Origin: an uncultured beta proteobacterium
GTDB lineage: Bacteria > Pseudomonadota > Gammaproteobacteria > Burkholderiales > Eutrophovitaceae
DNA: 64,000 bases
NCBI GenBank assembly: GCA_963792855.1
Contig: CAWBXZ010000001.1
Location: forward strand, 260,472 to 324,471
Direction of reading: 5' to 3'
Part shown: in pieces, positions 23,115-52,058 of the stretch
Layout of the letters: every line of letters starts with the position of its first letter
Position numbering within the stretch: the first letter of the stretch is position 1
Made by a program: the position numbers and the translations under genes
Notes under the pieces: generated by a model
Seen by the model: the letters and a program-made list of their open reading frames with translations, nothing else
Told to the model about the DNA's origin: nothing
The model's database searches: none

Positions 23115-23165
23115 TCGTTTAATGGCCCTTCGGTCTGATGCAGGTCAATAAGCATACATGCGCAT

Positions 23166-23452: not shown

Positions 23453-24619
23453 ATGGCAACTGAAAAAAAAGTGTCCACGACGGTACCGCTGAACTGGAAA
23501 GAAGTGTGGTTCACCAATTGCCCCATGGTATCCGCCAATAACGTCGACCAGGAGCTGGGGTGGTGCCGTGAGGAGTTCAAAAAGATCGGCGTCGAATATG
23601 CCTACTTCCGTCACGCGCCAGAGAACAACTGGTATCCGCACTACGTCCACAACCTGGACAATCTGATCCGCTTCGGTGGACTGTATCCTCCCATTCACGT
23701 TCACGCCGACATCCGCCGCACTGTGCTGCTGGGGGCGACCTGGGTCTACGAAGGCGGGGTGATGCAGGTGCGCGCCCGTGACAAGATCTTTCGCGTGAAG
23801 GACCTGAAAGGCAAGAAGATCGGCATCACCAAGAGCCTGAACACTATCAAGAATGACTGGTGGCGCATCCAGGAGCACATGGGCATCGAAAATATTCTGA
23901 TGCTCAATGACATGACCATGAAGGATATCGAACTCGTGGAGTTCCCCTATCCGGATGACTGGTATGACAAGCCGGAGATGCTGACCCCGCCGATGAACAA
24001 CCCGTCGGAGTTGTGGATGCGCCGTGACCACAAACATGATTATGCTTTCCGTCCGTTGGAAAAAGCACTGCTCGACGGTACCGTCGATGCCATCTACAAC
24101 CAGATGGGACAACTAGGACAGCTTTCCGAGGCCACGGGCAAAATCAAGTCCATCTTCGACTTGTCCAGCCATCCTGACTGGACCGTGCAGGTGGCGAACA
24201 CCCCCGCCGTCATCACCTGCAGCGATGTGATGGCAAAGGAACACCCCGAGCTGGTCATCGCCTACATGAAGGCAATGATCAAGGTCGGGATCTGGGCTAA
24301 CGAGCACAAGCACGCCGCGGCGGTGATCCTCAACCGGCAGACCTTCTATCTGGACGCCGAGCACACGTACGAAGGCATCAAGCATGTCGACATGGTGCCA
24401 AGCCTGAATGCGCAGAACATGGAATGCATCAAGATCGGCAAGGATTTCATGCTGAGTCACGGCTACATGAAGAACGATTTCGATGTAGACAAGTGGGCTG
24501 CACCGGAATTTCTGGAGGAGGCAGCAACGCAAGTGCTCAAGGAGGAGTGGGAGAAAAGGAGCTGGAGCAAACTTCCTCAAGGAGGCGGGCTCGAGGCAGA
24601 AGGCACGCGGCTCGGGTAG
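23453..24619 (+). CDS. DszB-like (2'-hydroxybiphenyl-2-sulfinate desulfinase family) cytoplasmic SsuA/NMT1-fold protein
   Basis: AAGGAG RBS; no signal peptide. WFTNCPMVSANN, IRFGGLYPP and WAAPEFLEEA match remembered DszB motifs (YSNCPVPNAL with the Cys nucleophile, TRFGGEIPP, WAAPEFLNNS). Confidence 0.65.
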   Translation: MATEKKVSTTVPLNWKEVWFTNCPMVSANNVDQELGWCREEFKKIGVEYAYFRHAPENNWYPHYVHNLDNLIRFGGLYPPIHVHADIRRTVLLGATWVYEGGVMQVRARDKIFRVKDLKGKKIGITKSLNTIKNDWWRIQEHMGIENILMLNDMTMKDIELVEFPYPDDWYDKPEMLTPPMNNPSELWMRRDHKHDYAFRPLEKALLDGTVDAIYNQMGQLGQLSEATGKIKSIFDLSSHPDWTVQVANTPAVITCSDVMAKEHPELVIAYMKAMIKVGIWANEHKHAAAVILNRQTFYLDAEHTYEGIKHVDMVPSLNAQNMECIKIGKDFMLSHGYMKNDFDVDKWAAPEFLEEAATQVLKEEWEKRSWSKLPQGGGLEAEGTRLG

Positions 24620-25718: not shown

Positions 25719-25734
25719 GCATCAGGGGAACACC

Positions 25735-27989: not shown

Positions 27990-28028
27990 TGCAGTGATAT
28001 CGGACTTGACGCGGTTAGGGCGATTGGC

Positions 28029-28544: not shown

Positions 28545-28564
28545 CCAGGTGGAAGCGACACGAC

Positions 28565-28891: not shown

Positions 28892-28956
28892 TTCAGATCG
28901 CCGTCGATCCCGCTGTATCGACCACAGTTCGCCATGGTGATCAGTAGCGTGACAAT

Positions 28957-28992
28957 AATGAATTGGCATGCTTGAATGAATTGGCATGCTTG
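28957..28992. repeat. perfect 18-bp tandem duplication AATGAATTGGCATGCTTG x2
   Basis: 28957-28974 and 28975-28992 are identical. Each unit contains the palindrome GCATGC. It lies upstream of the porin gene. Confidence 0.9.
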
Positions 28993-29268
28993 GCCTCGAT
29001 CAGTATGACTGTTGAGTTGCAGCATCAAACAATTAGTGCCGTGCTGTTCGCGTCACGAATAATAATAAGGGCGAAATTGCCCGCTCGATCCGGTGCAGAG
29101 AAGGTCATGACCGTACGGAAGCGATTGAATGACACGGCGGATGCTGCAGAACCAGGGCGATTGTCAACTGATCGTCGCAATTTGTGTTTATTCTCTGAAA
29201 GCATCGAAGCGGCACCCCCGAAGCAGGTTGTGGTGACTGCCAGAGAAAACGCCGACGATGCGTATCGG

Positions 29269-30552
29269 GTGCGCGCCATTTGCTACAAGGGATCGAGGCA
29301 GATACAGGCGTCGTTGATACTCATCCCCGCTCTGCTGCTATCGGCTTTCGCGGCAACGTCTGCGTTCGCGCAAACTTCCGAACAAGCTTCTGCTCCCCCG
29401 GACTGGATGACGCGTCCTACCCTCACCGGAGACTGGGGAGGCGCGCGCTCATCGCTCGCCGACAAGGGCGTGACTTTCGATCTCCGGCACACCTCTTTCT
29501 ATCAAGGACTCGTGGAAGGGACCGGGGACAACGGTTTCAAGTACGGGGGCAAGTTCGATGCCTTCATCAACCTCGACAGCGCCAAGATGGGCCTGTGGGA
29601 AGGCGGCGGATTTCGCTCACATTTCGAGTACAGCCACGGTGACGCACCGGCCAATCTCGGCGGCGCCATCTTTGCGGTCAATACCGCGCTGTATTGGCCG
29701 GTCGACACGCCGGAAGAGGTGGTGGCGACGTCGCTGTACTTCACCCAGAAAGTGGGTGAACGAAGCAGCATTGCGCTCGGCAAGTTCAATCCTGTTGACC
29801 TGCTCGCCGCCGACCCTTTCTACGGCGGGTGGGGCATTGACCGTTTCATGAACCTTATCCTCGCCGCGCCGCCAAGCGGTTTGATTCCGGTGGTGTTCAT
29901 GGGCGCGATCGGCTCCATCAAGACCGAGCCCGTTAACTGGACCATCATGGTCTTCGATCCCAATGACCGCACCAACGACTATTTGCCGGGCGATTTGTTC
30001 GAAGACGGCGTAAATATCTCCGTGAGCGGCGCGCACGTCACGACGCTCGCCGGGCGCAAGACCACCTATGTGGTCACGGGCCTCTACAGCACGGCAGAGG
30101 GGGTTGACTACTCGACATTGCCTCCCGGCTTTACGACGACAACACTGGATGACTCCTACAACGTCTCCTTTGAGTTCAAACATAACCTGCAGGAGAGTCC
30201 GGCGCAGCCGAATGCCAACTGGGGTTTCTACTTCAAGCTCGCCACCGCCGACGGCAACCCCAACTATATTCAGTCGTCGGTCATTGCCGGCATCGGTGGA
30301 AGGGCATTGTTCTTCGGACGGCCGCAAGACAATTTCGGTGTCGGCGCGTACCGCTACAACCTCAGTGATGTGCTTCAGAATTCACTGTCGCCCAATACCA
30401 GGTTCAAGGACGAATCCGCCTTTGAAGCCTATTACAACTACGCAGTGGCGCCATGGCTGTATCTCGGGCCGGACATCCAGTACATCAAACCGGCCTTTGG
30501 CAGTTATGAGAACGCCCTGGTCGCAACACTCAGGACTCAGATCCGTTTCTAG
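29269..30552 (+). CDS. OprB-family carbohydrate-selective porin
   Basis: Signal peptide ..QASLILIPALLLSAFAATSAFAQ, then LTGDWGGARSSLADKGVTFDL..TSFYQG, typical of OprB, and a C-terminal ..LRTQIRF. Start uncertain: GTG 29269 is proposed, because the track's upstream ATGs would add more than 50 aa before the signal peptide. Confidence 0.75.
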   Translation: MRAICYKGSRQIQASLILIPALLLSAFAATSAFAQTSEQASAPPDWMTRPTLTGDWGGARSSLADKGVTFDLRHTSFYQGLVEGTGDNGFKYGGKFDAFINLDSAKMGLWEGGGFRSHFEYSHGDAPANLGGAIFAVNTALYWPVDTPEEVVATSLYFTQKVGERSSIALGKFNPVDLLAADPFYGGWGIDRFMNLILAAPPSGLIPVVFMGAIGSIKTEPVNWTIMVFDPNDRTNDYLPGDLFEDGVNISVSGAHVTTLAGRKTTYVVTGLYSTAEGVDYSTLPPGFTTTTLDDSYNVSFEFKHNLQESPAQPNANWGFYFKLATADGNPNYIQSSVIAGIGGRALFFGRPQDNFGVGAYRYNLSDVLQNSLSPNTRFKDESAFEAYYNYAVAPWLYLGPDIQYIKPAFGSYENALVATLRTQIRF

Positions 30553-30670
30553 ACCATGATCATGATCCAAGCGATTCCCGATGGAAATGCCAAGGAGGTT
30601 CCGAATGTTTCAGATTCGACGAATTTCAAGTGAGCAGGGACAACACCGGTGCCAATGGCACAAACGCCTC

Positions 30671-31375
30671 ATGGCGGTGTTCACCATTGCTGCCGGGTGC
30701 CTGCTCAATGCAGGCATCGTAATGGCTGCGGAAACTGCCGTCAGCCAGGAAGAGATGAGGCGGTTTCCCGCAGCGTATATCTTCACGTTTCTGGTCCTGA
30801 TGCTCGGGCCGTTCAAGATCATCGGCCCGTTCACAAGAATGACGAAAGGCGCGGATGCAGCGCTGATGCGCAAGATCGCTCTTCTGGCGATACTTTTTGC
30901 GAGTATTACGCTTCTGGTCGCGGCCTTCATCGGCGAACTGGTCCTGGCGAACTACGGTATTCCGTTGCCCATGCTGGCGCTTGCCGCGGGCATCATCCTG
31001 TTTCTCGTGGCGCTGCAGAGCACCCTCAATCAATTTGCGCCGCTCACACCCGGCAACGAAGCAGGCACCCTCCCGCCACCGGATCTTAAAATGGCGTTGA
31101 CGCCGCTGGCGTTCCCGACAATCGTCACGCCGTATGGAATTGCCGCGCTGGTGGTGTTTCTCGCACTCAGCCCCGATCTTCAGGGCCGACTTGCCATCGG
31201 TGTCATTGTGTTGGTCATCATGCTGTTAAACTTGGCTGTGATGTTTGCAGCACGGCACGTCGGCCCGGTGCTCGGCATCTCGCTGGCGATTCTCGGGGCG
31301 GTGATCGGAATCATTCAAGTCGCGTTGGGACTCCAGATCATCAATAACTCGCTCCGGGCGCTGGGCATATTGTGA
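30671..31375 (+). CDS. MarC-family (UPF0056/NAAT) integral membrane protein
   Basis: Six TM segments. FTFLVLMLGPFKIIGPF and an ALTPLAFPTIVTPYGIAAL-like motif. Start uncertain (30581, 30671 or later). Confidence 0.7.
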   Translation: MAVFTIAAGCLLNAGIVMAAETAVSQEEMRRFPAAYIFTFLVLMLGPFKIIGPFTRMTKGADAALMRKIALLAILFASITLLVAAFIGELVLANYGIPLPMLALAAGIILFLVALQSTLNQFAPLTPGNEAGTLPPPDLKMALTPLAFPTIVTPYGIAALVVFLALSPDLQGRLAIGVIVLVIMLLNLAVMFAARHVGPVLGISLAILGAVIGIIQVALGLQIINNSLRALGIL

Positions 31376-31418
31376 AGCCGCGGCTTCACTGTTACATGAT
31401 GTGAGGGAGAACAGACCG

Positions 31419-31838
31419 ATGGCCGATCATCCCGCTAGCAGTCCAACACAAGAACTTCCGCTTGGCACCAGACTGTCGATTCAGAACACGCGTCTTGCGA
31501 TCGAACGCACTCTGATGGCCTGGGTCAGGACAGGCACATCGATGATCACGTTCGGCTTCAGCGTCTACAAGTTTTTTCAGATGGAGGTTACGAAGACGGG
31601 GATTACGCCGCACGCGCCCCTCATACAGAAGACACTCCTCGGGCCGCGCGAGTTTGGACTCGTATTGATCGGCATCGGCTTGCTGTCGATCCTGCTCGGC
31701 GCGTTCGAGCAGCGGCGGGACCTGAGAGCGTTACGCCAGGTGTATCCTGACCTGCCACAATCCGGTACGCGTCTGATAGCGCTGGTAGTCGGCGTACTCG
31801 GGATACTCGCGCTGGTAGGGGTGATCTACCGCTTCTAG
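31419..31838 (+). CDS. DUF202 (YidH-like) membrane protein
   Basis: GAGGGAGA lies 8 nt before ATG 31419. NTRLAIERTLMAWVRTGTSMITFG is the DUF202 signature. Confidence 0.75.
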   Translation: MADHPASSPTQELPLGTRLSIQNTRLAIERTLMAWVRTGTSMITFGFSVYKFFQMEVTKTGITPHAPLIQKTLLGPREFGLVLIGIGLLSILLGAFEQRRDLRALRQVYPDLPQSGTRLIALVVGVLGILALVGVIYRF

Positions 31839-36450: not shown

Positions 36451-37206
36451 ATGACCGAAGACGAAGTCCGGGAACGGGCTTTTGCGATGCCGCTCACCAG
36501 CCCGGCGTACCCGCCCGGGCCGTATCGCTTCTACAACCGCGAGTTCTTCATCATCAACTACCGTACCGATCCGGATGCATTGAGGGCGGTGATCCCCGCG
36601 CCGCTGGAGTTTACCGAACCGGTCGTCAAGTACGAATTCATCCGCATGCCCGACTCGACCGGATTCGGCGACTACACCGAAAGCGGGCAGGTTATCCCGG
36701 TCAGTTTCCGCGGCGAACGCGGCAACTATGTGCACTCGATGTACCTGGACTGCGATCCGCCGATTGCCGGTGGGCGCGAACTATGGGGTTTTCCGAAGAA
36801 GCTGGCTTCGCCGGTCCTCAAAGTCGAGAAAGACACGCTCGGCGGCGTGCTGCGGTTCGGCCCGGTGCCGGTCGCGGTGGCCACGATGGGCTACAAGCAT
36901 CGGGCGCTGGACAACGAAAAGATCCGTGAGTCTCTGGAGGCGCCGGGCTATCTGCTGAAAATTATCCCGCACGTCGATGGCACGCCGCGTATCTGCGAAA
37001 TCGTGCGTTATGTCTGCGGCGACGTAGTTGTCCACGGTGCCTGGAGCGGACCGGCGGCCCTTGAATTGTTCCATCACGCGCTCGCCCCGGTCGCTGCCTT
37101 GCCGGTGCTGGAAGTGCTTTCCGCATCGCACATCGTGTCGGACCTGACGCTCAATCTGGGCACCGTCGTCCATGATTACCTCGCACCTGAAAGGAAGAAG
37201 CAATGA
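36451..37206 (+). CDS. adc: acetoacetate decarboxylase
   Basis: [29 protein letters not shown] (the Lys-Lys pair of the Schiff-base site), ATMGYKH.ALD and [16 protein letters not shown] closely parallel the remembered clostridial Adc. Confidence 0.9.
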
Positions 37207-37985
37207 AGCTCGAGGGCAAGACTGCCATCATCACCGGCGCCGCCAGCGGCATTGGCAAAAGCATTGCGTTGTACTTCGCCCGCGAGGGCGCCAACGTCGC
37301 CATCGCCGACCTCAAGCTTGATGCTGCAGAAGCGGCAGCGAAGGAAATCCGCGCTGCCAAAGGCGTCGCGATGGGCGTGGCGATGGACGTGAGCGACGAG
37401 AAGGCCGTCAACGACGGGGTCGCGGCAGTCGTCAACGAATTCGGCGGTGTCGACATCCTGGTCAGCAATGCCGGCATCCAGATCGTGCATCCGATCGAAG
37501 CGTTTCCGTTCGCCGACTGGAAGAAGATGCTCGCCATCCACCTCGACGGCGCCTTTCTGACGACCAAGGCCTGTCTGCCGCACATGTACAAGTCGGGCCG
37601 TGGCGGCAGCATCATTTACATGGGTTCGGTGCACTCGAAGGAGGCTTCGCTGCTGAAGTCCGCCTATGTCACGGCAAAGCACGGGCTGATCGGGCTCGCC
37701 AAGGTGGTGGCCAAGGAGGGAGCCGAGCACGGCGTGCGCGCCAATGTGATCTGCCCCGGTTTCGTGCGCACGCCGCTCGTCGACAAGCAGATCCCCGAGC
37801 AGGCAAAGGAACTCGGCATTTCCGAACAGGAAGTTATCAAGAATGTCATGCTCAAGGAGACGGTAGACGGTGAATTCACCACGGTCGAGGACGTCGCCGA
37901 GGCGACGCTGTTCTGCGCTGCGTTCCCGTCCAATGCCATGACCGGCCAGTCCTTTGTTGTCAGCCACGGCTGGTTCATGCAGTAG
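37203..37985 (+). CDS. bdhA: 3-hydroxybutyrate dehydrogenase (SDR)
   Basis: ATGA overlap with adc. [28 protein letters not shown]...W, S.HS...S..KSAYV.AKHG and ICPG.V.TPLV are the classic BdhA pattern. Confidence 0.9.
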
Positions 37986-38043
37986 CAGGACGCGGGCGAT
38001 AGTATCCGGGGTTTATTCGAAAAATTTGTCTGGAGAAAGAAAT

Positions 38044-39741
38044 ATGAAAGTCATCATCGTAGGTGGCGTAGCCGGTGGCGCATCGTGCGCGGCGCGCTTG
38101 CGCAGGCTGGACGAGAATGCCGAGATACTGATGGTCGAGCGCGGGCCGTACGTCTCGTACGCGAATTGCGGGCTGCCTTACCATGTCGGCGGTGTGATCG
38201 AACAGGAATCGAGTCTGCTGGTGGCGGACGAAAACACATTCCGTTCGCAATTCGCCATTGATGTAAGGACGAACTGCGAATGCGTCAATATTTCGCCAGA
38301 CAAGAAGACCGTCGACCTGCGCGATGTAAAGACCGGCAAGGTCACGACCGAGTCCTACGACAAGCTGGTGCTCTCGCCCGGTGCGGAATCGATCCGCCCA
38401 CCACTGCCCGGCATTGATCTGCCGGGCATCTTTCCGGTGCGCACTGTGCCCGACGCGAGAACGATTCGGCAGTGGATCGAGAAGGGTTCGGCGTTCCTGT
38501 CGGGCATGCATCGCTACTCGGGTTTCCAGACGGTGCGGCCGAAGACACGTGCCGTCGTCATTGGCGGCGGTTTCATCGGCCTGGAAACAGCGGAGAACCT
38601 CATCCACCGCGGCTTCGACGTGACGCTGGTCGAAATGGGTGATCAGATTCTGGGGCCGATCGACCCCGAGATGGCGCGCATCGCCGAAGGCTATCTTGAA
38701 CGTCACGGTCTACGGCTGGCGCTCAATGACGGTGTATCCGGCTTCGAACAGGGCGAGAACAACACGCTGAAGGTGCTCACGAAATCGGGCAAGGTGCATC
38801 CGGCCGACATCGTAATCCTCGCCATCGGTGTGCGTCCGGATACCGCGCTGGCGAAAAAAGCCGGCCTGGAGATCGGCAAACGCGGCGGCATCCGCGTCGA
38901 TGATCACATGCGCACCAGCAAGCCGGACATCTTCGCGGTCGGTGATGTGGTCGAGGTCAAGGACAGCGTGACCGGCGAATGGGGTCTGGTCGCGTTGGCC
39001 GGCCCGGCCAACCGGCAGGGACGCATCGCAGCGGACGTCATTGCCGGGCGCGACTCGCGCTTCCGCGGCACCCAGGGCACGGCGATCATCGGCTTCTTTG
39101 GCGGTGTCGCGGCCTGGACCGGCGTCAGCGAGAAAGCGCTCAAGCGCAACGGTGACACCGACTACGAAAAAATCTACCTGTACCCGAACTCGCACGCCGG
39201 CTATTACCCGGGCGCGAAGCCGATCGCGATGAAGGTGCTGTTCCGCAAATCGAACGGCAAACTGCTCGGCGCGCAGGCACTGGGTGAGGACATGGTGGAC
39301 AAGCGCGTCAGCGCGCTGGCCATGGCGCTGCAGATGGGCGCGACGATCTATGATCTGGAGGAAGCCGAGCTGTGTTACGCACCGCAATTCGGCAGCGCGA
39401 AGGACCCGGTGAATTTCGCGGGGATGATCGCAGCGGATGTCCTGCGCGGTGATATGCCACTCAGCCACTGGGACAGTGAGGAGCAGGGCTTCCTGCTCGA
39501 TGTGCGCTCGCCGGTGGAACTGGCGGTGGAGAGCGAGCCGAACGCGGTCAATATTCCGCTCGGAGAATTGCGCGCGCGGCTCAGCGAACTGCCGCGCGAC
39601 AAGGAGATTCTGGTCATCTGCCGTTCCGGGCAGCGTGCCTACTACGCGACACGGATGCTGTTGCAAAAAGGCTTCAAGGCCAGGACGCTGTCCGGCGGCA
39701 TGTTGTCGCGCACGCACGCGACGACGTTCTGGACGAGTTGA
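38044..39741 (+). CDS. CoA-disulfide/persulfide-reductase-type FAD oxidoreductase with C-terminal rhodanese domain
   Basis: MKVIIVGGVAGGASCAARLRR is the FAD motif and SYANCGLPY carries the redox Cys. The C-terminal rhodanese has the CRSGQRA loop. 565 aa. Confidence 0.85.
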   Translation: MKVIIVGGVAGGASCAARLRRLDENAEILMVERGPYVSYANCGLPYHVGGVIEQESSLLVADENTFRSQFAIDVRTNCECVNISPDKKTVDLRDVKTGKVTTESYDKLVLSPGAESIRPPLPGIDLPGIFPVRTVPDARTIRQWIEKGSAFLSGMHRYSGFQTVRPKTRAVVIGGGFIGLETAENLIHRGFDVTLVEMGDQILGPIDPEMARIAEGYLERHGLRLALNDGVSGFEQGENNTLKVLTKSGKVHPADIVILAIGVRPDTALAKKAGLEIGKRGGIRVDDHMRTSKPDIFAVGDVVEVKDSVTGEWGLVALAGPANRQGRIAADVIAGRDSRFRGTQGTAIIGFFGGVAAWTGVSEKALKRNGDTDYEKIYLYPNSHAGYYPGAKPIAMKVLFRKSNGKLLGAQALGEDMVDKRVSALAMALQMGATIYDLEEAELCYAPQFGSAKDPVNFAGMIAADVLRGDMPLSHWDSEEQGFLLDVRSPVELAVESEPNAVNIPLGELRARLSELPRDKEILVICRSGQRAYYATRMLLQKGFKARTLSGGMLSRTHATTFWTS

Positions 39742-40723: not shown

Positions 40724-41968
40724 ATGCTTGCCGAAAGCCACGTCTATTTTCACAAAGCTGCCGATGTCCTCGGCTTGTCAGACAAGATTCGAACCATCCT
40801 GTTGACGCCGCGACGCACCGTCAAGGTGGGAATCACCATCGAAGGCGAAGATGGCACGCTGCAGTCTTATGAGGGTTACCGCGTTCAGCACAACGCGGCC
40901 CGCGGCCCGATGAAGGGCGGCTTGCGCTATCACCCGGCGATGGATGAGGACCATGCGGGCGCGTTGGCCAACCTCATGACCTGGAAGACTGCGGTGGTCG
41001 ATGTTCCTTACGGCGGCGCCAAGGGCGGCATCAACTGCGACCCGCGTTCCATGTCGGAGAAGGATCTGTTCGCGGTCACCGTGCGCTTTGTCGAGCAAAT
41101 GAAGGAGGTCATCGGGCCGACCACTGACATTCCCGCACCGGACGTCAACACCAATGCCAAGGTCATGGGCTGGATCATGCACGAATATTCGAAGTACGCG
41201 GGTTTCTCGCCCGGTGTCGTTACCGGCAAACCTCTGGACCTGTTCGGCTCTGAAGGAAGAGAGGCGGCAACGGGCCGTGGCGTCATGGACGTTCTGGCCG
41301 AAGCGTTGAGCGAGCAGGGCAAGAGTTTTGGTGACATCACGGTAGCAGTGCAGGGATTTGGCAATGTTGGTAGCAACGCCGCCCGGCTGATCGCAGAACG
41401 CGGGGCCCGGGTCGTCGCGGTCGCCGATCACACGGGTGGGGTTTCCAAAGAAGAAGGGCTAGACATTCCGGCGCTGGTGGCGTGGGCGGCTGAGCGTGGC
41501 GGCGTCAAGGGTTTCCCGGGAGCAGAGGCTTTTGCCAGTTCGGAGATCATCACCTGGAAAGCCGATGTGCTGGTGCCGGCTGCTCTGGAAGACGCAATCA
41601 ACAAGGACAATGCGGCGGACGTCAAAGCCGGCATCATTGTCGAAGGCGCCAACGGCCCGACGACACCGGAGGCCGATCAGATACTCAACGAGCGCGGCAT
41701 CCTGATTATTCCGGACATTCTCGCCAACGCCGGTGGTGTGACCGTGAGCTACTTCGAATGGGCTCAGAACATCCAGCAGTTCAGATGGGATGAAGAGAAG
41801 GTCAATCTCGAACTGGACAAGAAAATGAGTAAGGCCTACCGTGCAGTGCATGAGGAGGCGACTGCGCGCAACATTGACATGCGAACGGCGGCCTTTGTAT
41901 TGGCCATCCGCAGAGTCGGAAAGGCGGCGCTCGCACGACAGCACATCAAGGCCGAGCTTCCGTTCTAA
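40724..41968 (+). CDS. Glu/Leu/Phe/Val dehydrogenase family (glutamate dehydrogenase-like)
   Basis: AGGAGG RBS before ATG 40724. GPMKGGLRYHP, MTWKTAVVDVPYGGAKGG, VQGFGNVG and GANGPTT are present. Confidence 0.9.
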   Translation: MLAESHVYFHKAADVLGLSDKIRTILLTPRRTVKVGITIEGEDGTLQSYEGYRVQHNAARGPMKGGLRYHPAMDEDHAGALANLMTWKTAVVDVPYGGAKGGINCDPRSMSEKDLFAVTVRFVEQMKEVIGPTTDIPAPDVNTNAKVMGWIMHEYSKYAGFSPGVVTGKPLDLFGSEGREAATGRGVMDVLAEALSEQGKSFGDITVAVQGFGNVGSNAARLIAERGARVVAVADHTGGVSKEEGLDIPALVAWAAERGGVKGFPGAEAFASSEIITWKADVLVPAALEDAINKDNAADVKAGIIVEGANGPTTPEADQILNERGILIIPDILANAGGVTVSYFEWAQNIQQFRWDEEKVNLELDKKMSKAYRAVHEEATARNIDMRTAAFVLAIRRVGKAALARQHIKAELPF

Positions 41969-42113: not shown

Positions 42114-42135
42114 CACCTTGATCGCGATCAAGGTG
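42114..42135. promoter_or_regulatory. perfect FNR/CRP-family box inside a 22-bp perfect palindrome
   Basis: CACCTTGATCGCGATCAAGGTG. The core TTGAT-CGCG-ATCAA (42118-42131) equals the FNR consensus TTGAT-N4-ATCAA. It lies about 220 bp upstream of the GRE start codon. Confidence 0.7.
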
Positions 42136-42350: not shown

Positions 42351-44823
42351 ATGAAGACCGCAACGAAATCTGCAACAAGAAAAACTGCAACAAAAAAAAC
42401 CGCAAGTGATCTTAGGGGTAGTTCTACAGCACGGGTTACGGCGGATGACGAGCGCATTGATACGCTGAAGGAACTGCTCAGGAGCACTCCGCAGGATCTC
42501 GACTTCGAGCGAGTCAAGATCATGCGCGAGATTTACGAAGAATCCGCAGGCGATAATTCGCTCCTCCAACGAGCCAAGTTCCTGGCCGCCGTCCTGGAGC
42601 GCAAGAAACTGTATATCGACGACAACCTCTTCGTCGGTGCCATGGCAGGCAAACAAAACGCGCTCTACACCTATCCCGAATGGCAGGTGGACTGGATGAT
42701 CGAGGAAAAGACGGTCGAAAACTCGCCGACGCCGGAAGACAAGGCGGCGAACCAGTGGGCGATCGACTACTGGGGCCCGCGTGGGATGAAACTCCGCACC
42801 GAAGCCATCTTTGAGAAGCGCTTTGGATACGACCCCAAAATCAGTTACGACGCCGGACTCATTGCCGCGTTCCATGACTGGCCGGCCGGTGGTGGCAACC
42901 TGAACTACCCGCGGGTGTACCGCGAGGGCCTCGCCAGCATGATCAAGGAGGTGGAGGAGCGACAGATGGCCCTCGAGATGCGGATGCCGAACATGACCAA
43001 GTTCTACTTCTATGAGTCATCCCTCATCGTGATGCGGGCGGCGATTCGCTATGCCCATCGCTATGCCGAGTTGGCTCGGGAGATGGCCGCCAAGGAAAAG
43101 GACAAGACCCGCAAGGCGGAGCTGATCTCCCTCGCGGAAACCTGCGAGTGGGTTCCCGAGAATCCTGCCCGTAACCTGCGGGAAGCCATCCAGAGTCACT
43201 TCTTCTGTCACATCATTGCAGAACTTGAGCAGATCGGCTGCGGGTACTCCGAGGCCTACCTGGGTCAGAACCTCGAGCCTTTTTACCAGGCCGACAAGGC
43301 GGCCGGACTCATTACCTACGAAGACGCAGTCTTCATGTTCAAGAACCTCACCATCAAGTTGAACGAGATCAACTACTACTACGGTGAGAAGATCGCTCTG
43401 CAGAACTCCGCCGACCTGGGACAGAGTATTACCCTTGCGGGATTTTCCGAGGACGGTGGGGATGCCACGGCGGAAATGGACTACGTGATTCTTGATTCCT
43501 CGCTTTATCTCTCACTGCCCCAGCCGCCGCTCTCGGTTGCGCTTACTCCGCAAACTCCGGGCAAGTTCATCGAGAAAGTGCTCGATGTGATTGGGACCGG
43601 CATCGGTCTCCCGCAATTCCTCAACGCGGACGTTATGATGAAGCGGGCTCTGCACCTCTGGGGCCACAACGACCGGGTCGGCGATCTCCCATTGGAGAAA
43701 GCGCGACGCACCTGTGTCGGGGCCTGCGTGGGAAGCTATATCCCGTATGAGACCGGTCACCCGGTGGAGGGGCAGCCCAACCTCGGCAAGATCATCGAGT
43801 TGACCATGAACGATGGCTTCGATCCGCGAACCCAAAAGCAGGTCGGTCCCAAGACCGGCGATCCCGTTAATTTCAAGGACTTCGAGGAACTGTACGCGGC
43901 GTTCGAGAAGCAGCTTCAATTCTGCGAAGACACACTGCGTCACGCGGCCTGGATTTCGAACATCCTGCAGGCGGATTTCCTCCCCTGTAGCTTGGCGCTC
44001 GATCCTGACCGGAGGATGCATCGAGACCGGCACCGAGACCTGGGCCGGCGGAGCCAACTACTACACGGTCGCCCAGATCTCCGTCGGCCAGGTGGATGCC
44101 GCCAACTGCCTAATGGCGGTGAAGGACTTGGTGTTCGACAAGAAGAAGCTGACCATGGCCGAACTGAAGGCGGCTCTGGCGGCCAACTTCGAAGGCAAAT
44201 ACGAGAAGGTCAGGAAGATGTGTTACGAGGACGCGCCGAAGCACGGAAACGACATCCCGGAGGTGAACCAAATACTCCTCAGGGTGAACAACAGTATCCT
44301 GACGGCCTTCAACAACGTCGATGGCGGCGGCAACTACATCACCAAAGACACCAAGACCTCGCTCGACCAATACACCAAGAGTGTTCACAACCTGATGGGC
44401 CTGGTGACCGGCGCGTTACCCAACGGCAAGAAGGCCGGCGTGGCCCTCACCGATGGCAGCCTGTCGGCGATGCCGGGCACGGATGTCAACGGACCGACCG
44501 CGCTGGTGATGTCTGCGGCCAAAGGCCAGGATGCCGTGAAGTGGTGTGCCACGCACATGAACATGAAACTCCCGCCGGACCAACTCAAGTCGCGCAAGGG
44601 TCGGGAAAACGTGATGAACCTGGTCAGGACCTTGTTCACCAACGGGGGCTATCACATCCAGTTCAATGTGCTGGATACCGAGAAGCTGAGAGACGCGCAG
44701 AAGCACCCTGAGAACTACCGTGACCTCGTGGTCCGAGTCGCCGGTTTCAGCGCGTTCTTCACCAAGCTGCATGTGGGTGTTCAGAACGAGATCATCGAGC
44801 GGACCTTGCAGAAATTCGGGTGA
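42351..44823 (+). pseudogene. glycyl-radical enzyme (PFL2/PflD-like family), reading frame broken by one extra base in a C4 run (true pseudogene or assembly error)
   Basis: Frame 0 (42351...) is GRE-like up to ..AAWISNILQADFLP. Frame +1 continues VAWRSILTGGCIETGTETWAGGANYY... and ends with the glycyl-radical motif DLVVRVAGFSAFFTKL. The junction is at CCCC 43982-43985. The 786-aa track ORF ends in out-of-frame Arg/Gly-rich sequence. Confidence 0.9.
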
Positions 44824-44920
44824 CGAACAACGGAGCTGGTACGGCGTGGCGTTTCGTCACGCCGTACCGGAAATTCCTCGAAGAACAGCAAACAACCCCA
44901 GTACAACGGGATATCAGATC

Positions 44921-46078
44921 ATGAGTAAGCACACGAAACGCATCGCAATCAATGTGGGTGCCGGCTACGTCCCGGGCATGAATGCCGTGGTAACGGGAGC
45001 CGCGCTCGCAGCGGTTAAACTGGGGTGGGAAATCGTCGGCATACGCGACGGTTTCGACGGGCTCCTCCATGGAGACCGTTACCCGAACGGCGGCGTGGTA
45101 ACGCTCTCGCCGCAATTCATCGCGGATATGGACCCGGCGGCGAGTGGCGCGCTCGGACAGTCGCCGTGGGTAGATCCTTTTCATGTCCGGCGAGTCGACG
45201 ATGACGAGTATGTCCAGGAAGTCGATGTCTCGGACGAGATCCTGGACAAGCTGAAATCCGAGGGAGTCGATGCACTGATCTCGGTCGTTGGCGGGCGCGG
45301 ACTCAGCATTCTTTACAAACTCCATCGAAAAGGCCTGAATGCCGTGTGCATCCCGCGCTCGCTCGAGAATGACATTGCCAGCACGACGGTGTCATTCGGC
45401 TTCAACAGCGCGTTGACCTTCACGATCGACATGCTGGACCGGAGCCGGCAGGCGGCGCGGGCTTCCCGCCAGATCGCTGTCGTTGAGGTGCTGGGAGCAC
45501 AGTCCGGCTGGCTGGCATTGCAAGCCGGGATCGCGGCCGGCGCCGATGCGATCCTGATTCCTGAAATTCCCAGTGACCTTGATGTGATCGCCGCGCAACT
45601 GAAGGAGAAGATGGACCCCGATCGACCTGCGGCGCTCGTCGTCGTGGCGGAGGGTGTGCGGCTCGTGGGAGGATCGAACAAGGAAGAGAGATCGTCGTCA
45701 TTCAGGGCGTCCTTGTCGCCGCTGGCAACGGGGGGTTCCGGTGAGCACGTCATCGCACGCTCGGGCCGGGCAGCGAATGACGTTGCCAATGGACTGCAGC
45801 GACGGCTTGCCGAGGACACCTATGCGCTCGCGCTGGGGCCATGGGTTCGAGGCGGTACGCCGAGTGCCGTTGACCGGCAGCTCGGCATCGGCTACGGGGC
45901 CGGTGCCGTACAGGCACTCAGTGCCGGCAAAAGCGGTGTGATGGTTGCTTTCCAACCGCCGGACATCGAATCGGTACCGCTTGCGCAGGCGATCAACAAG
46001 GTGCGTACGGTGCCTGCTGATAGCGAGATGATGCAAATCGCCCGATCCATCGGCATCTGCCTGGGAGAAGCGTCATGA
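44921..46078 (+). CDS. phosphofructokinase-fold protein with degenerate catalytic motifs
   Basis: ATG 44921 (MSKHTKRIAINVGAGYVPGMNA). PFK scaffold, but GGDGS reads GGRGL, TIDND reads SLEND and MGR reads LGA. Confidence 0.7.
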   Translation: MSKHTKRIAINVGAGYVPGMNAVVTGAALAAVKLGWEIVGIRDGFDGLLHGDRYPNGGVVTLSPQFIADMDPAASGALGQSPWVDPFHVRRVDDDEYVQEVDVSDEILDKLKSEGVDALISVVGGRGLSILYKLHRKGLNAVCIPRSLENDIASTTVSFGFNSALTFTIDMLDRSRQAARASRQIAVVEVLGAQSGWLALQAGIAAGADAILIPEIPSDLDVIAAQLKEKMDPDRPAALVVVAEGVRLVGGSNKEERSSSFRASLSPLATGGSGEHVIARSGRAANDVANGLQRRLAEDTYALALGPWVRGGTPSAVDRQLGIGYGAGAVQALSAGKSGVMVAFQPPDIESVPLAQAINKVRTVPADSEMMQIARSIGICLGEAS

Positions 46079-47031
46079 GCAGCAATTCAAAAGATGCGAT
46101 CACGGGCACGGTACTGAACATCCAGCGCTACTGCAGCCATGATGGGCCTGGCATTCGCACGACCGTTTTCCTGAAGGGCTGCTCACTGCGTTGCAAGTGG
46201 TGCAGCAATCCGGAAAGCATCTACCCGAAACCTGAGCTTGCCTACGATCGCTCGAAGTGCAGCGGTGCGAAGAAGTGTGGCCTTTGCCTGAAGCCGCCAT
46301 TTCCGGAAGGGGCGTTCTACATCGCCGATGGGGCCGACGACACGATCAACGTCAATTGGGACCTGGCTTCGGAATGCGATAAGGCGCTCACATCCCAATG
46401 CCCGACCGACGCGCTGTACATGTTCGGTGACAGCATGACGGTGGACGAGGTTCTGGAGGAGGTGGAAAAGGACGCCTCTTTCTACAGGAACACCGGAGGC
46501 GGGATGACGCTAAGTGGCGGCGAGTGCCTGTTGCAACCTGATTTCGCCGAGGCACTGCTGAAGGGCGCGCACGAGCGTGGCATCAACACGGCGATCGAAA
46601 CTGCGGGCAACTATCCCTGGCGCTTCATGGAGCAGGTGTTACCCCATGTTGATACCGTGCTTCACGATCTCAAGGTGACTGACCCGGAGCGGCACAAGAA
46701 ATGGACCGCCGTCAAGAACGAAAGGATCATGGCGAACTTCAAGAAAGCCTACGAAACTTTTCCCGATGCGGACTTTATCGCGCGCACGCCGGTGATTCCT
46801 GGCGTTAATGACGACGAGGAACATATCCGGGCGGTGCTTGAGTTCATTCGTCCCCACAAGAATGTGATCGACTATGAGCTGCTGCCGTACATGCGTTTCG
46901 GCATGGGCAAGTACGACCTCTTGGGCGAGCTGTACGAGTTGAAGGACTTTAAACCCCCGACTGAAGAGTCGATGGAGCGGCTGCAGGCGATTATCGATGA
47001 GGCTTTCGGCCGCAATAAGCAAGATAGATGA
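46075..47031 (+). CDS. glycyl-radical enzyme activating protein (radical SAM)
   Basis: ATGA overlap with the upstream gene. GPGIRTTVFLKGCSLRCKWCSNPES is the CxxxCxxC motif. Additional Cys-rich ferredoxin-like insert (CSGAKKCGLC...QCP). Confidence 0.9.
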   Translation: MSSNSKDAITGTVLNIQRYCSHDGPGIRTTVFLKGCSLRCKWCSNPESIYPKPELAYDRSKCSGAKKCGLCLKPPFPEGAFYIADGADDTINVNWDLASECDKALTSQCPTDALYMFGDSMTVDEVLEEVEKDASFYRNTGGGMTLSGGECLLQPDFAEALLKGAHERGINTAIETAGNYPWRFMEQVLPHVDTVLHDLKVTDPERHKKWTAVKNERIMANFKKAYETFPDADFIARTPVIPGVNDDEEHIRAVLEFIRPHKNVIDYELLPYMRFGMGKYDLLGELYELKDFKPPTEESMERLQAIIDEAFGRNKQDR

Positions 47032-47931
47032 CAGAGACCAGCGAACAAGAATCACGCCTCATCGAAACGGGCTGGTTGGCGGAGCATCTGGATAGTCCCA
47101 GTCTCAGGATTCTGGATTGCTCTGTTGTGGTTCGTGATGCGGATGACGGTAGCCGCACCTACCCAGTGGAAGATCTGAATGGGACAGGGCCACATCCCCG
47201 GTAGCGTGTTTGTTGACTTCCTGGCAGATCTTAATGCCAGGCAGCCGATACCGTATAACATGCCACCACTGGATGAATTTGCAGCAACGATGGAATCTAT
47301 CGGAGTCGCTGATGACAACCGGGTTGTGCTCTACGACAATTCGAACCATGCATGGGCGGCCCGTGTCTGGTGGATGTTACGGGTTATCGGTTTCGACAGC
47401 GCGGCCGTGCTAAACGGCGGCTGGCAGAAGTGGAAGGCGGAAGGGCGGCCGGTTTCCGCCGGGGAAACATGTTATCCAGCTGGCAAGCTTACGATCAGGC
47501 ATCGCCCGGGGCTGATGGTAGACAAGCAGTACGTATTGTCATCGCTATCGGACGACAGGATCACGATCATCAATGCTTTGACGGCAGACGAACACAGCGG
47601 CAAGGTGAGCCGGTTTCCGAGAGCCGGCCACATTTCGGGAAGTGTAAACGTTGACTGTGAGACGCTGGTCGACCCGAATCAGCACGTCTTTCTGCCGAAG
47701 GAAGAACTGCGCGCGATTTTCGACTCTGCCAGTGCGCTGAACGGAGACAGTGTCATCACTTATTGCGGCGGAGGCGTTGCTGCGAGCAGCGATGCTTTAG
47801 CGTTAACGTTGCTCGGTATGGATGATGTCGCCGTTTACGATGGCGGATTGATTGAATGGACCGCCGATTCAAGTTTGCCGATGGAAGAGGATCGTCATGG
47901 TCAGAAAACAAGGTCGACCCAGCCTGGTTGA
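47028..47931 (+). pseudogene. tandem-rhodanese sulfurtransferase (SseA/MST-like), frame broken by one extra G (true pseudogene or assembly error)
   Basis: ATG 47028 (ATGA overlap with the activase) gives MTETSEQESRLIETGWLAEHLDSPSLRILDCS...YPVEDLN, then a stop. Frame +1 continues GQGHIPGSVFVDF... to 47931 with the active loop YCGGGVAAS. The junction is at GGG 47181-47183. Confidence 0.8.
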
Positions 47932-48194
47932 GCAAGACCAAGGGACTCAAGTGCCATGTCAATGTGTCCAAAGAGTGTGTTCTTTACATCGGAATCAGTG
48001 ATCGCAAGTCGTCGGGACAAGTTCTGCGATCAGATATCGGACGTAGTGCCCGACGAATGCCTGAGGCAGGATTCGATCGCGCATATCGCCTGATCGCCAA
48101 CTGCCACAGGTTCAGGATTTGCGACGACGTTGGAGAAATTGTGATCGAAGCGCGAGCATGAACGCCATCTGAAACCGGCGGAATCCAGTCCCGC

Positions 48195-49748
48195 TCAATC
48201 CATTACGAGCGATGCGAGATGCTCGATCAGGTCACGTGAGTCAATGATGCCGACGGGCCTTTGCCGATCGTCGACCAGCGGAAGATAGCGCAGATCACTA
48301 ACCACCATCAGGTGGACCGCATGAGCCAGCGGATGGTCCGGGTGAACCGTGTGCGGGTCGGGCGTCATCACCTCGCGCACAATAGTCGCGGCGGGATCGA
48401 GTTGTGCCGCGGCGACGCGCACGAGCGCGTCCGTCTCGGTGAAGATGCCGGTGAGTCTCCCGTCTTCTCCGGTGACGAGCACACTACCGATGCGTCGCTC
48501 ACGCAGAATTCCGAGCGCGACTTCCACGGTAGACGTCTCGGCGAGCGAAATGGGCACAGCCGGATTCAACTTCTCCACAGTGTCGTCACGCAGACTGCGC
48601 TCGATCATACTCTGGGCTTCGCCGGGCGCGACTTCCTCGTGCGTAAGACTGGCGAGGCACAGTTCGCACTCGTCGGCACCGGGCAGATTCGGATGGTCGC
48701 AAACAGGGCAGGGCGTGCCTTCCAGGGCGGCAGCGGGAATCGCCCACGTGTCGCCCTGGCGATAGAGCGCGTTCAGGTCCGGCGCATGCGCTTCCCGGGC
48801 GCTTTGCACCTGCGCCATTAACTGCTGGTCGTAGACAGGCTTCCGGATTGCACGGAATACCCCTACGGGAGTCGGAAAGTCCGGCGGCCCCATGCGGCTC
48901 AAAAAGTAGGCCAAAGTCGGTTGCGTTGCGCATTCGTCGTGTACCAGAAGCTCTTGTTCGTCAACATCGGCGACGTTGACCACTTCGGGCGTGAGTCCGT
49001 TAAGGCGAATGCCTTTTTCCATCGCCTTGCCGAAGCGCATTGGTTGCCCGTGCTCGAGGAAGAGCACATTGTCGGGCTTGGTGTCGGGATCAGTCAGATG
49101 GGCCCAGGCCCCATTGTTGAAGATCATGCAATTCTGCGCGACCTCAATCAACGTGGCGCCCGAATGCTGCGCTGCCCGCCTCAACACACCCGCCATATGC
49201 TCCTGGAAGGTATCTACCGTGCGCGCGATGAAGCTGGCCTCGGCCCCGATGGCCACGCCAATGGGATTGACGGGGTTCTCGATCGAGCCGTCGGGACTTG
49301 ATTTGGTACGCTTGCCGATCTCGGACGTCGGCGAGTACTGTCCTTTGGTAAGGCCGTAGATCCGATTATTGAACAACACAATATTGATGTCGATATTGCG
49401 TCGAAGAGCGTGCAGGAAATGATTGCCGCCAATCGCCAGGGCGTCACCGTCACCGGTCGTGACCCAAATCTGTAACTCGGGACGTGCACACTTGAGACCG
49501 GTCGCCAAGGTCGGCGCCCGACCGTGAATCGAGTGAATCCCGTAAGTGTTCATGTAATACGGGAAGCGGCTTGAGCAGCCGATGCCCGCAATCACCACAA
49601 TGTTCTCGCGCGGAATTCCCAGTTCGGGGAGTGTCTTCTGGACTTGTGCGAGGATCGCATAGTCGCCGCATCCGGGGCACCAGCGGACGGTCTGGTCCGA
49701 AACAAAATCCCGGCGGGTGAGTTTGATCGACTGGATATTCGCGTTCAT
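48195..49748 (-). CDS. korB: 2-oxoacid:ferredoxin oxidoreductase beta subunit fused to a C-terminal Cys4 ribbon + CBS pair
   Basis: VRWCPGCGDY and GIGCSSRFPYY...TTGDGD are the TPP/FeS motifs (aa 1 to ~335). They are followed by CPVCDHPNLPGADECELC and two CBS motifs (aa ~345-517; nt 48195-48731). Confidence 0.85.
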   Translation of the reverse strand: MNANIQSIKLTRRDFVSDQTVRWCPGCGDYAILAQVQKTLPELGIPRENIVVIAGIGCSSRFPYYMNTYGIHSIHGRAPTLATGLKCARPELQIWVTTGDGDALAIGGNHFLHALRRNIDINIVLFNNRIYGLTKGQYSPTSEIGKRTKSSPDGSIENPVNPIGVAIGAEASFIARTVDTFQEHMAGVLRRAAQHSGATLIEVAQNCMIFNNGAWAHLTDPDTKPDNVLFLEHGQPMRFGKAMEKGIRLNGLTPEVVNVADVDEQELLVHDECATQPTLAYFLSRMGPPDFPTPVGVFRAIRKPVYDQQLMAQVQSAREAHAPDLNALYRQGDTWAIPAAALEGTPCPVCDHPNLPGADECELCLASLTHEEVAPGEAQSMIERSLRDDTVEKLNPAVPISLAETSTVEVALGILRERRIGSVLVTGEDGRLTGIFTETDALVRVAAAQLDPAATIVREVMTPDPHTVHPDHPLAHAVHLMVVSDLRYLPLVDDRQRPVGIIDSRDLIEHLASLVMD

Positions 49749-51590: not shown

Positions 51591-52058
51591 TCAGCCTCCT
51601 TCCCGCTCAAGCGCTGTCTGATCAGGATCGGGCGGCAGGTTGAGCACCTGCGCGGAGTGATGCTCGGCGAGGTAGTTGAGAATGTCCTTATGTCTGACAC
51701 AGCCGATCACGCGGTCAACGTTGTCCACGATCGGGACGTTCCGGAATCCGCCGCGCCGCATTAGCCGAACTGCCTTGCGTATAGAGTCAGTTTGAGTGAC
51801 TTTGGCGGGATTGGGTGTCATCCAGTCGGTGGCGGGCTGGTCGAAGGCCTCGGCGTTTCCCAGGACACGCGCAACAAGGTCGCGCTCCGTGAAAATTCCG
51901 GCGAGCCGATCGTCGCACGTCAGCAACGCATAGCCGGAGTTTCTGTCGACCATCTGACGGATCACCTCACGTAGTGGCCTTGCCGCGTCGAGCACCACCG
52001 GCCGCGTTGTCGCCACCGTCATGACCTCGATCATCTTGATGCTTTGTTCAAACCGCAT
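51591..52058 (-). CDS. stand-alone CBS-pair protein
   Basis: 155 aa with two CBS motifs (..ALLTCDDRLAGIFTERDL.. and ..NVPIVDNVDRVIGCVRHKDIL..). Its stop codon ends 5 nt before the korA start. Confidence 0.8.
   Translation of the reverse strand: MRFEQSIKMIEVMTVATTRPVVLDAARPLREVIRQMVDRNSGYALLTCDDRLAGIFTERDLVARVLGNAEAFDQPATDWMTPNPAKVTQTDSIRKAVRLMRRGGFRNVPIVDNVDRVIGCVRHKDILNYLAEHHSAQVLNLPPDPDQTALEREGG

Follow-up and report, generated by a model that had tools for sequence, protein, structure and literature searches.

Among characterised glycyl radical enzymes (GREs), all 1,2-eliminases and isomerases keep a C-X-E motif in the cysteine loop, only pyruvate formate-lyase (PFL) and TdcE have two cysteines in that loop, and the accessory subunits reported so far resemble high-potential iron-sulfur proteins (HiPIP-like) or rubredoxins (PMC13450708, June 2026 review). 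The glycyl radical domain itself is recognised by the fingerprint RVxG[FWY]x6-8[FL]x4Qx2[IV]x2R (PMC13450708). Here we analyse a stretch of 64,000 nucleotides from an uncultured beta proteobacterium (GenBank assembly GCA_963792855.1, contig CAWBXZ010000001.1, positions 260,472 to 324,471 of the forward strand), which we call the window, and in it an operon that joins a GRE gene to genes for a phosphofructokinase (PFK)-fold protein, a radical-S-adenosylmethionine (SAM) activase and a tandem rhodanese. At a probability of roughly 55%, we favour the view that the locus is a functional member of an uncharacterised PFL-like GRE family, whose core runs GRE, PFK-fold protein, activase, whose PFK-like partner is not a kinase, and whose radical reaction differs from those described. 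The four open reading frames (ORFs) lie on the same strand at 42351-47931 of the window:

42351..44823, + strand: GRE, 823 aa after correction for one extra T at 43991/43992
43991..43992, + strand: one-base insertion in the GRE gene, TT where close relatives have T, which splits the reading frame
44921..46078, + strand: PFK-fold protein, 385 aa, PF00365 match
46075..47031, + strand: radical-SAM GRE activase, 318 aa, with CX3CX2C and a Cys-rich ferredoxin-like insert
47028..47931, + strand: tandem rhodanese, putatively of the 3-mercaptopyruvate-sulfurtransferase type, active loop CGGGVAAS, two one-base deletions

The arrangement of four co-directional genes with ATGA coupling at 46075 and 47028, claimed by the original prediction, is read directly from the sequence: the stop of the PFK-like gene overlaps the activase start at 46075-46078, the activase stop overlaps the rhodanese start at 47028-47031, and a 97-nt gap separates the GRE from the PFK-fold gene. 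Pfam assigns PFL-like and Gly_radical domains to the first protein, PFK to the second, Radical_SAM and Fer4_12 to the third and two rhodanese domains to the fourth.

The GRE matches PF02901 with 459 bits and PF01228 with 98 bits. Its glycine loop, RVAGFSAFF, places the radical site at G798, and RVAGFSAFFTKLHVGVQNEIIER satisfies the whole fingerprint. The cysteine loop, RRTCVGACVGSYIPYETGH, holds C455 and C459 as had been predicted, and C459, which stands 339 residues before G798, is matched in pairwise alignments to the cysteine that is catalytic in HypD, glycerol dehydratase and CutC. The predicted lack of both the Cys-Cys doublet and the GCVE signature is likewise found, with G461 aligned to the Glu of GCVE in these three enzymes, an invariant Ala before C459, and A-C-V-G invariant in 18 diverse members of the family. 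C455, four residues upstream of C459, is replaced by Ala in one member (P0117) and is thus dispensable. The longer segment RRT-x-x-G-A-C-V-G-S-Y-x-P-Y-E-T-G-H-P-x-E-G-Q-P-N is invariant in the same 18 members, which come from different lineages, as are W-P-x-G-G-G-N-L-x-Y-P and E-Q-x-G-C-G-Y-S. Since the loop has neither the Glu of C-X-E nor a Cys-Cys pair, the GRE lacks the motifs by which eliminases, isomerases and formate-lyases are defined and, as judged by sequence, lies outside all characterised classes.

Profile and structure searches place it as the orphan that it had been taken for. All NCBIfam equivalog scores stay under their cut-offs: HypD (466 against 1100), indoleacetate decarboxylase (403 against 1100), HpsG (387 against 1000), CutC (361 against 1050), the large subunit of HPAD (335 against 1150) and PRK09983 (324 against 1109). 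The PFL2/glycerol-dehydratase family model TIGR01774 gives 437 against a cut-off of 678, and the PFL model TIGR01255 gives 85 bits against 994, matching the C-terminal radical domain alone. The best solved relative in the PDB is HypD (6vxc, 383 bits, about 33% identity), followed by glycerol dehydratase (1r8w, 355 bits), CutC and about thirty other GRE structures at similar distance; TutD (253 bits) and MasD (283 bits) both score under HypD. There is no small Cys-rich ORF in or between the operon genes and none recurs next to the GRE in 83 loci, in line with the predicted absence of X-succinate-synthase small subunits.

Three further positions of the GRE may belong to its active site. C297 is an invariant second cysteine, predicted to lie at the barrel position of HypD D278 and CutC T334, which glycerol dehydratase S282 appears to match. 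In pairwise alignment N183 stands at the position of CutC D216 and HypD H160 (HypD H160 falling on G182/N183), and G357 at that of the aromatic HypD F340. We take N183, C297 and G357 to be at substrate-contact sites of the solved enzymes.

The family to which this GRE belongs is broad and conserved. It comprises more than 120 protein-database clusters at 73-95% identity and is 71-95% identical over at least ten phyla, and a scan of one genome per species gave 227 carriers, the best 80 of which fall in Gamma-, Alpha-, Beta- and Deltaproteobacteria, Bacteroidota, Acidobacteriota, Chloroflexota, Planctomycetota, Verrucomicrobiota, Nitrospirota, Ignavibacteria and Hydrogenedentes. Two carriers are cultured, Eudoraea adriatica DSM 19308 and Flavihumibacter profundi KCTC 62290, and the nearest relatives of the window GRE come from uncultured Gammaproteobacteria (94-95% protein identity). 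A PFK-fold gene between a GRE and its activase, which had been thought to be without precedent, is not known from described systems (PMC13450708), whereas in this family the order GRE, PFK-like, activase is found in all 67 genome loci whose sequence extends 2.6 kb or more beyond the GRE. The metagenome contigs L001-L005 have the same order. Of 71 loci, 29 have a 4-nt overlap between the PFK-like stop and the activase start, another 5 have an overlap of 1 nt, and in 31 more the two lie no further than 13 nt apart. We conclude that the triad is an uncharacterised, strictly conserved operon core, a variant of GRE systems.

The window copy of this triad is uneven in its relationships. Its GRE gene is 95% identical in DNA to that of L001, whereas identity to L001 drops to about 69% in the PFK-like and activase genes. 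This contrast makes the operon a mosaic and suggests recombination or transfer of the GRE gene alone.

In a search of 1.8 billion cluster representatives, the next GRE clades appear at 48%, 43% and at most 40% identity. Their Cys loops read G-C-V-S-T, S-C-V-P-T and G-C-V-Q-S, all without the Glu, and the nearest ones keep the cysteine of G-C-G. The sister clades P0241 and P0242, 43-48% identical, resemble the family in lacking the Glu of C-X-E (G-C-V-S-T), in keeping the G-C-G cysteine that corresponds to C297, and in the glycine loop RVAGFSA[FY]F. Neither has a PFK-like gene, however, and their neighbours are a TRAP transporter, an acyl-CoA dehydrogenase and a thiolase. Loci of the 48% clade carry a sigma-54 activator, GRE and activase, and those of P0241 share with our family a nearby single-domain rhodanese of 179 aa (Rhd179 type). 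As the 48% sister clade is without the PFK-like gene, this gene is an acquisition specific to the GRE family described here. The GRE thus stands outside the known clades with a PFK-like gene as its strict neighbour; nesting inside a characterised clade, with neighbours not conserved, is the outcome by which the original prediction would have failed.

Further GRE clades, about 40% identical and with non-CXE loops (C-V-Q or C-V-S), were seen on the metagenome contigs L094-L125, where they adjoin an iron-type alcohol dehydrogenase, aldehyde:ferredoxin oxidoreductase, aldehyde dehydrogenase, TRAP transporters and an AIG2-like protein. No member of the GRE family turned up in a search of plasmids, where the best match was a Clostridium butyricum glycerol dehydratase at 32.5% identity. 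In the literature, nothing was found on a GRE with a phosphofructokinase, rhodanese, desulfinase or CoA-disulfide reductase, or on a GRE link to sulfinate, sulfone or persulfide.

The PFK-like protein matches PF00365 with 203 bits over residues 7-333, but it scores under the NCBIfam cut-offs for PFKs (TIGR02483, 240 against 430; NF002872, 229 against 253; TIGR02482, 164 against 371). That it is degenerate, as had been proposed, is seen in conserved substitutions across 63 primary copies and 23 paralogues, compared with E. coli PfkA. The Asp of GGD is changed to Tyr or Phe and the Mg-binding Asp of GGDGS to Arg, Gln or Lys; G124 has become Arg, T125 Ser, D127 Glu, R162 Lys, R171 Glu or Ala, R243 Phe or Tyr and H249 Pro, and R72 is replaced as well. 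D129, R252 and PGMN are kept. The same substitutions are visible in alignments to solved PFKs. Within the subfamily, the motif P-R-S-[LI]-E-N-D, K162, R252 and many other cleft residues are invariant, a pattern that argues for a cleft maintained but altered, not for random decay. Because the Mg/ATP and fructose-6-phosphate residues are lost in a conserved pattern, the protein is probably not a kinase.

On a rival view it would still act as a kinase or phosphotransferase, with its donor or acceptor altered, and make a phosphorylated substrate for the GRE, by analogy with the action of PflD and YbiW on anhydro-sugar phosphates. A strong, full-length PF00365 match and the invariant motif, K162, R252 and cleft, which indicate a maintained binding site, would fit such an activity, and GRE isomerases acting on sugar phosphates are known (PMC13450708). 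However, the Asp residues of GGDGS and GGD and the residues R72, R171, R243 and H249 are replaced, no PFK cut-off is reached, and PflD and YbiW keep the C-X-E that this GRE has lost. Moreover, no sugar transporter, isomerase or aldolase recurs in 83 neighbourhoods, and the PFK-like paralogues are partnered by Fe-S proteins and not by sugar genes. The sugar-phosphate substrate once considered for the operon finds no backing here, with the kinase residues gone and no recurring sugar-phosphate genes, and we consider this alternative quite unlikely. We prefer to see the PFK-like protein as a partner of the GRE and activase that binds a ligand or serves as a scaffold without being a catalyst; a kinase of new specificity is the less likely option.

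The paralogues link the PFK fold to iron-sulfur proteins. In Bacteroidales, one or two extra PFK-like paralogues are each paired with a protein of about 390 aa that has a CNCC[SG]CCCG motif and two ferredoxin clusters, which gives, with the activase included, up to three pairs of PFK-like and Fe-S protein per locus. These observations come from L013, L044, L048 and L068 (Bacteroidales) and L018, and also from L086 and L128. The N-terminal part of the Cys-rich partner of about 390 aa has no Pfam match, and the protein also occurs beside sister-clade GREs that lack a PFK-like gene.

The activase has C-S-L-R-C-K-W-C (CX3CX2C) and scores 321 bits against the TIGR02494 cut-off of 174. The gene directly 3' of it most often encodes an electron-transfer protein: the Cys-rich Fe-S protein in 16 loci and, in others, a small ferredoxin, an FNR-like reductase or a 2-oxoacid:ferredoxin oxidoreductase (OFOR; L007 and L009). 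An intact SAM synthetase gene, metK, follows the operon in 11 related loci, whereas the window keeps a remnant of 45 residues. These post-activase genes fit a supply of SAM and low-potential electrons, and the OFOR in the window is a likely electron source. The window features that bear on electron supply, regulation and nearby metabolism are:

47956..48090, + strand: metK remnant, N-terminal 45 residues
48195..51700, - strand: two-subunit OFOR
42118..42131, no strand assigned: FNR/CRP-type palindrome TTGATCGCGATCAA, a perfect match about 220 nt 5' of the GRE start
40724..41968, + strand: glutamate dehydrogenase, also near the operon in 8 related loci, most of them from proteobacteria
38044..39741, + strand: CoADR-Rhd, a CoA-disulfide-reductase-like flavoprotein fused to a rhodanese domain

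The neighbours that had been named for an anaerobic module are confirmed in the window. The OFOR, the FNR box and, as a further neighbour of the operon in the window, a thiamine pyrophosphate (TPP) enzyme of the acetolactate-synthase type are present, and TTGATCGCGATCAA is the only perfect FNR-type box in the window. The box is not conserved, however: with up to one mismatch allowed, 77 related loci have none 5' of the GRE, while 12 of 425 random windows from these loci contain one. Conservation of the box was rejected on this ground. Scans of the operon for sigma-70 promoters and terminators gave matches at chance level.

From these features a mechanism can be proposed. The activase would use SAM and a low-potential electron to form a radical on G798; ferredoxins, the Cys-rich 2x[4Fe-4S] protein, FNR-like reductases, OFOR and metK could supply the electrons and the SAM. 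The G798 radical would then give a thiyl radical on C459, which would take a hydrogen atom from the substrate. With no Glu base and no Cys pair, the reaction would be neither eliminase- or isomerase-like, through a ketyl on an alpha-hydroxy substrate, nor PFL-like, and for want of a Glu for ketyl formation the substrate would probably be without the alpha-hydroxyl typical of eliminase substrates. We envisage some other radical chemistry acting on a metabolite that is small and probably anionic, with C297, K676, E467, H470 and E473 as candidates for substrate binding or proton/hydrogen transfer, and with the PFK-fold partner of the GRE/activase pair as a putative new type of GRE accessory.

Some of the same observations could point to a CoA-dependent cleavage of 2-oxoacids, in which the GRE would be an analogue of PFL using C459 and C297, a CoADR-type reductase would keep CoA reduced and free of persulfide, and glutamate dehydrogenase and OFOR would belong to the same fermentative node. 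The very high conservation of the family is typical of central fermentative enzymes, a second invariant cysteine is predicted in the active site, and CoADR-Rhd, glutamate dehydrogenase, OFOR, an acetoacetate-decarboxylase-family protein (ADC) and a short-chain dehydrogenase (SDR) are neighbours of the GRE. The A-C-V-G-S of the GRE may also resemble the C-C-V-S-P loop of PFL. Nonetheless, the Cys-Cys pair is absent, the PFL model matches the C-terminal radical domain only, glutamate dehydrogenase, OFOR and ADC are near the GRE in only 4-8 loci, and neither phosphotransacetylase nor acetate kinase nor formate genes recur. This makes a PFL analogue very improbable.

The fourth gene of the operon is not a conserved member, being a singleton among 86 neighbourhoods. 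3-Mercaptopyruvate sulfurtransferases have two rhodanese domains and an active loop of the type C-G-[ST]-G-V-T. The tandem rhodanese of the window, with the loop CGGGVAAS and two indels in its gene, has SseA (1urh, 143 bits) as its best PDB match and scores 171 against the cut-off of 250 for NF008557. The sulfur chemistry that it had seemed to indicate receives partial support, from other genes: near the GRE we found CoADR-Rhd in 34 loci, a DszB-like protein in 32 and Rhd179 in 19-20, together with SBF transporters in 35 and SulP transporters in 20. At least one of CoADR-Rhd, the DszB-like protein and Rhd179 is present in 53 of 83 non-redundant loci from at least ten lineages, nearly always on the GRE strand. 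In the window these genes, besides the CoADR-Rhd above, are:

23453..24619, + strand: DszB-like protein, Y-x-N-C-P and R-F-G-G motifs kept
22065-23114: AraC regulator, in a sulfur module with the DszB-like gene
28023-28541: Rhd179, same module
30773-31375: MarC, same module
31401-31838: DUF202 protein, same module

DszB-type desulfinases place the catalytic residues Cys27, His60, Arg70 and Gly73 in a fold like that of periplasmic binding proteins. The only PDB matches of the DszB-like protein are DszB itself (2de2 and 2de3, full length), and the equivalents of all four residues are kept, so that it is a predicted desulfinase relative with DszB-type catalytic residues in place. Across phyla, such DszB-like proteins share 77-92% identity. 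Three loci without a GRE nearby (L140, L141 and L142), from Chelatococcus asaccharovorans, Synechococcus sp. RedBA-s and Aliisedimentitalea scapharcae, have the DszB-like gene beside an AraC regulator, rhodanese, SulP, CoADR-Rhd, MarC and DUF202. Because the same genes occur without a GRE, they form an independent module and are not part of the operon core. A role for the DszB-like protein, rhodanese and CoADR in the GRE pathway was accordingly lowered to a rival explanation after this reciprocal look-up. Thus the sulfur association stands as a frequent one, although the tandem rhodanese is not its carrier and the module is independent of the GRE.

As such a rival, the GRE would be an oxygen-independent cleaver of the C-S bond in an organosulfur anion (sulfonate, sulfone or thioether) without an alpha-hydroxyl. 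Once formed beta to the sulfur group, a carbon radical would fragment with no need of a Glu base, and the sulfite, sulfinate or persulfide released would be handled by the DszB-like desulfinase, rhodaneses and CoADR-rhodanese and moved by SulP and SBF. The 53 of 83 loci with sulfur genes on almost always the GRE strand, the full set of catalytic residues in a protein whose sole PDB match is DszB, and the Rhd179-type rhodanese in the sister clade without a PFK-like gene all speak for it. Against it, the module is self-standing in aerobes without any GRE, Eudoraea and Flavihumibacter have the GRE, PFK-like and activase genes with no sulfur genes nearby, and neither a sulfite reductase nor a sulfite exporter recurs in the neighbourhoods. 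In addition, the alignment gives no clear sign of an Arg-Gln-Arg sulfonate triad like that of the known C-S lyases, whose first Arg position is Ala or Gly here. IslA is reported to use Arg678 and V680 for sulfonate (PMC13450708), and K676/V678 of our GRE lie in that barrel segment, a putative correspondence in favour of C-S cleavage. On balance, we see C-S cleavage as possible with the odds clearly against it. More generally, the frequent company of the sulfur module suggests a tie to sulfur compounds in anoxic habitats, either of the GRE reaction or of the protection of a radical enzyme. Either C-S fragmentation of a beta-sulfonyl or beta-thio radical or the keeping of persulfides off the radical enzyme would be plausible as such a link, if on the unlikely side.

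Several points weigh against a functional GRE family with a non-kinase partner and a different reaction, the reading we favour. We infer all mechanistic steps beyond the sequence features, and the active-site placement of C297, N183 and K676 is likewise a prediction from sequence. AlphaFold2 models, built on alignments of the window sequences with homologues at least 68% identical to the query, were too poor for fold searches or active-site inspection, both for the repaired GRE (18 sequences, mean confidence score (pLDDT) 48) and for the PFK-like protein (20 sequences, pLDDT 56). The PFK-like protein keeps E127, D129, K162 and R252 as well as its conserved cleft, and this may reflect a changed catalytic activity. 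The sulfur module is not required for GRE function, being absent near the GRE in the cultured carriers (L038 and L049). Finally, three indels lie within 5.6 kb, a clustering also expected from recent gene decay, while CoADR-Rhd, glutamate dehydrogenase, the DszB-like protein, ADC, SDR and OFOR each give a single unbroken match (about ten neighbouring genes were compared with relatives).

This clustering of indels favours a view of the operon as a recently inactivated pseudogene cluster, in which the frameshifts would be real and the metK remnant would mark local decay. The truncated metK (47956-48090) and a fragment of a second DszB-like gene, its C-terminal 52 residues at 26761-26916, indicate past rearrangement around the GRE and sulfur modules. 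The indels themselves, however, are all one-base length changes in homopolymers (TT, CCC and GGG), typical of long-read error, and the closest relatives come from long-read metagenome assemblies, judged by their contig_N names. Where two frameshifts had been claimed there are three indels, one in the GRE gene and two in the rhodanese gene. The two GRE frames meet between ...FLPCS and RSILTGGCIE..., at W/L, where an extra T gives AGCTTGGCG against AGCT-GGCG in L006 and L007; the flanks are 98% identical to both of these intact relatives. Taking out the T brings back the family-invariant Trp548, and the repaired GRE has zero private substitutions at columns invariant in 17 diverse relatives. The rhodanese gene carries two one-base deletions about 25 nt apart, the first in a run of C near 47162-64, the second in a run of G near 47186-88. 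Undoing both restores ...RTYPSGRSEWDRGHIPGS..., which agrees with R-x-E-[YW]-x-x-G-H-I-P-G of SseA and bovine rhodanese. A join by a single frameshift (...EDLNGQGHIPGS...) was rejected, since the third frame encodes the conserved R-x-E-[YW] segment. Given the absence of private changes at invariant columns and the homopolymer setting, we read the GRE gene as intact and the three indels as probable long-read errors; inactivation seems unlikely.

Other features of the window touch the neighbouring systems. The stretch 22065-31838, with its AraC regulator, DszB-like protein, single-domain rhodanese, MarC and DUF202, is a second conserved and uncharacterised module. The gene that comes next to the DszB-like gene on its 3' side encodes a 2x[4Fe-4S] ferredoxin domain fused to a nitroreductase domain (24858-25718), and a one-mismatch FNR-type box, TTGAAAACGATCAA, lies 5' of this fusion at 24676-24689. 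The OFOR beta subunit (48195-49748, - strand) ends in a C-terminal CBS pair, and a stand-alone CBS-pair protein is encoded just 5' of the alpha subunit (51591-52058, - strand). At 36451-39741, the ADC, SDR and CoADR-rhodanese genes form a trio that is kept in Alphaproteobacteria and Planctomycetota loci (L009, L017 and L024), where the ADC and SDR counterparts are about 85% identical to those of the window.

To our knowledge, no oxygen-free reactions of microbial metabolism are harder than those of GREs, and each newly assigned GRE clade that we know of has so far brought new chemistry (choline, hydroxyproline, isethionate, anhydro-sugar phosphates). The present family is set apart by its spread over at least 227 species-level genomes and at least ten phyla, by a conservation higher than that of most metabolic enzymes (71-95%), by the missing catalytic Glu of the two largest reaction classes, and by its constant association with a disabled PFK homologue coupled to the activase. 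Should the PFK-like protein prove to be a subunit or regulator, the present view of GRE architecture and control would change; should it be a kinase, a new phosphorylated substrate would be indicated. As a bolder proposal, to be held tentatively and at somewhat less than even odds, the PFK-fold protein would be an obligatory non-kinase subunit or regulator and the first GRE accessory other than a small iron protein, and the GRE would found a new reaction class, with a single Cys-loop cysteine without Glu and a second barrel cysteine, used by many soil, freshwater and marine-sediment bacteria usually deemed aerobes and possibly tied to sulfur. The question can be put to a direct test in the two cultured carriers, Eudoraea adriatica and Flavihumibacter profundi, and the DszB-like/rhodanese/CoADR-rhodanese module merits its own study as a second conserved system.

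Compared with known systems, the operon combines familiar parts in an unfamiliar way. HypD, glycerol and propanediol dehydratases, CutC, IslA and HpsG share with this GRE a PFL2-type barrel, a single catalytic Cys and the glycyl radical domain, and the activase is of the TIGR02494 type with extra ferredoxin-like clusters, as in the 1,2-eliminases. In contrast to the C-X-E of those eliminases, this GRE invariantly has C-V-G, and an obligatory PFK-fold gene accompanies this family and none of them. PFL and TdcE belong to the same superfamily, have the glycyl fingerprint and, like this GRE, no Glu after the catalytic Cys, but they have a Cys-Cys pair where A458-C459 stands here. Benzylsuccinate and alkylsuccinate synthases and HPAD resemble the operon in co-encoding an extra non-activase protein with a proposed regulatory or structural role. 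Their extra subunits, however, are small HiPIP-like [4Fe-4S] or rubredoxin-like proteins (PMC13450708), whereas here the partner is a PFK-fold protein of 385 aa without Cys clusters. ATP- and pyrophosphate (PPi)-dependent PFKs, including the non-catalytic alpha subunits of PPi-PFK, share with the PFK-like protein the full-length domain, PGMN, Glu or Asp at 127 and 129, and R252. Unlike them, the PFK-like protein has its Mg, ATP and fructose-6-phosphate residues replaced, is located between a GRE and its activase, and has paralogues that stand beside Fe-S proteins.

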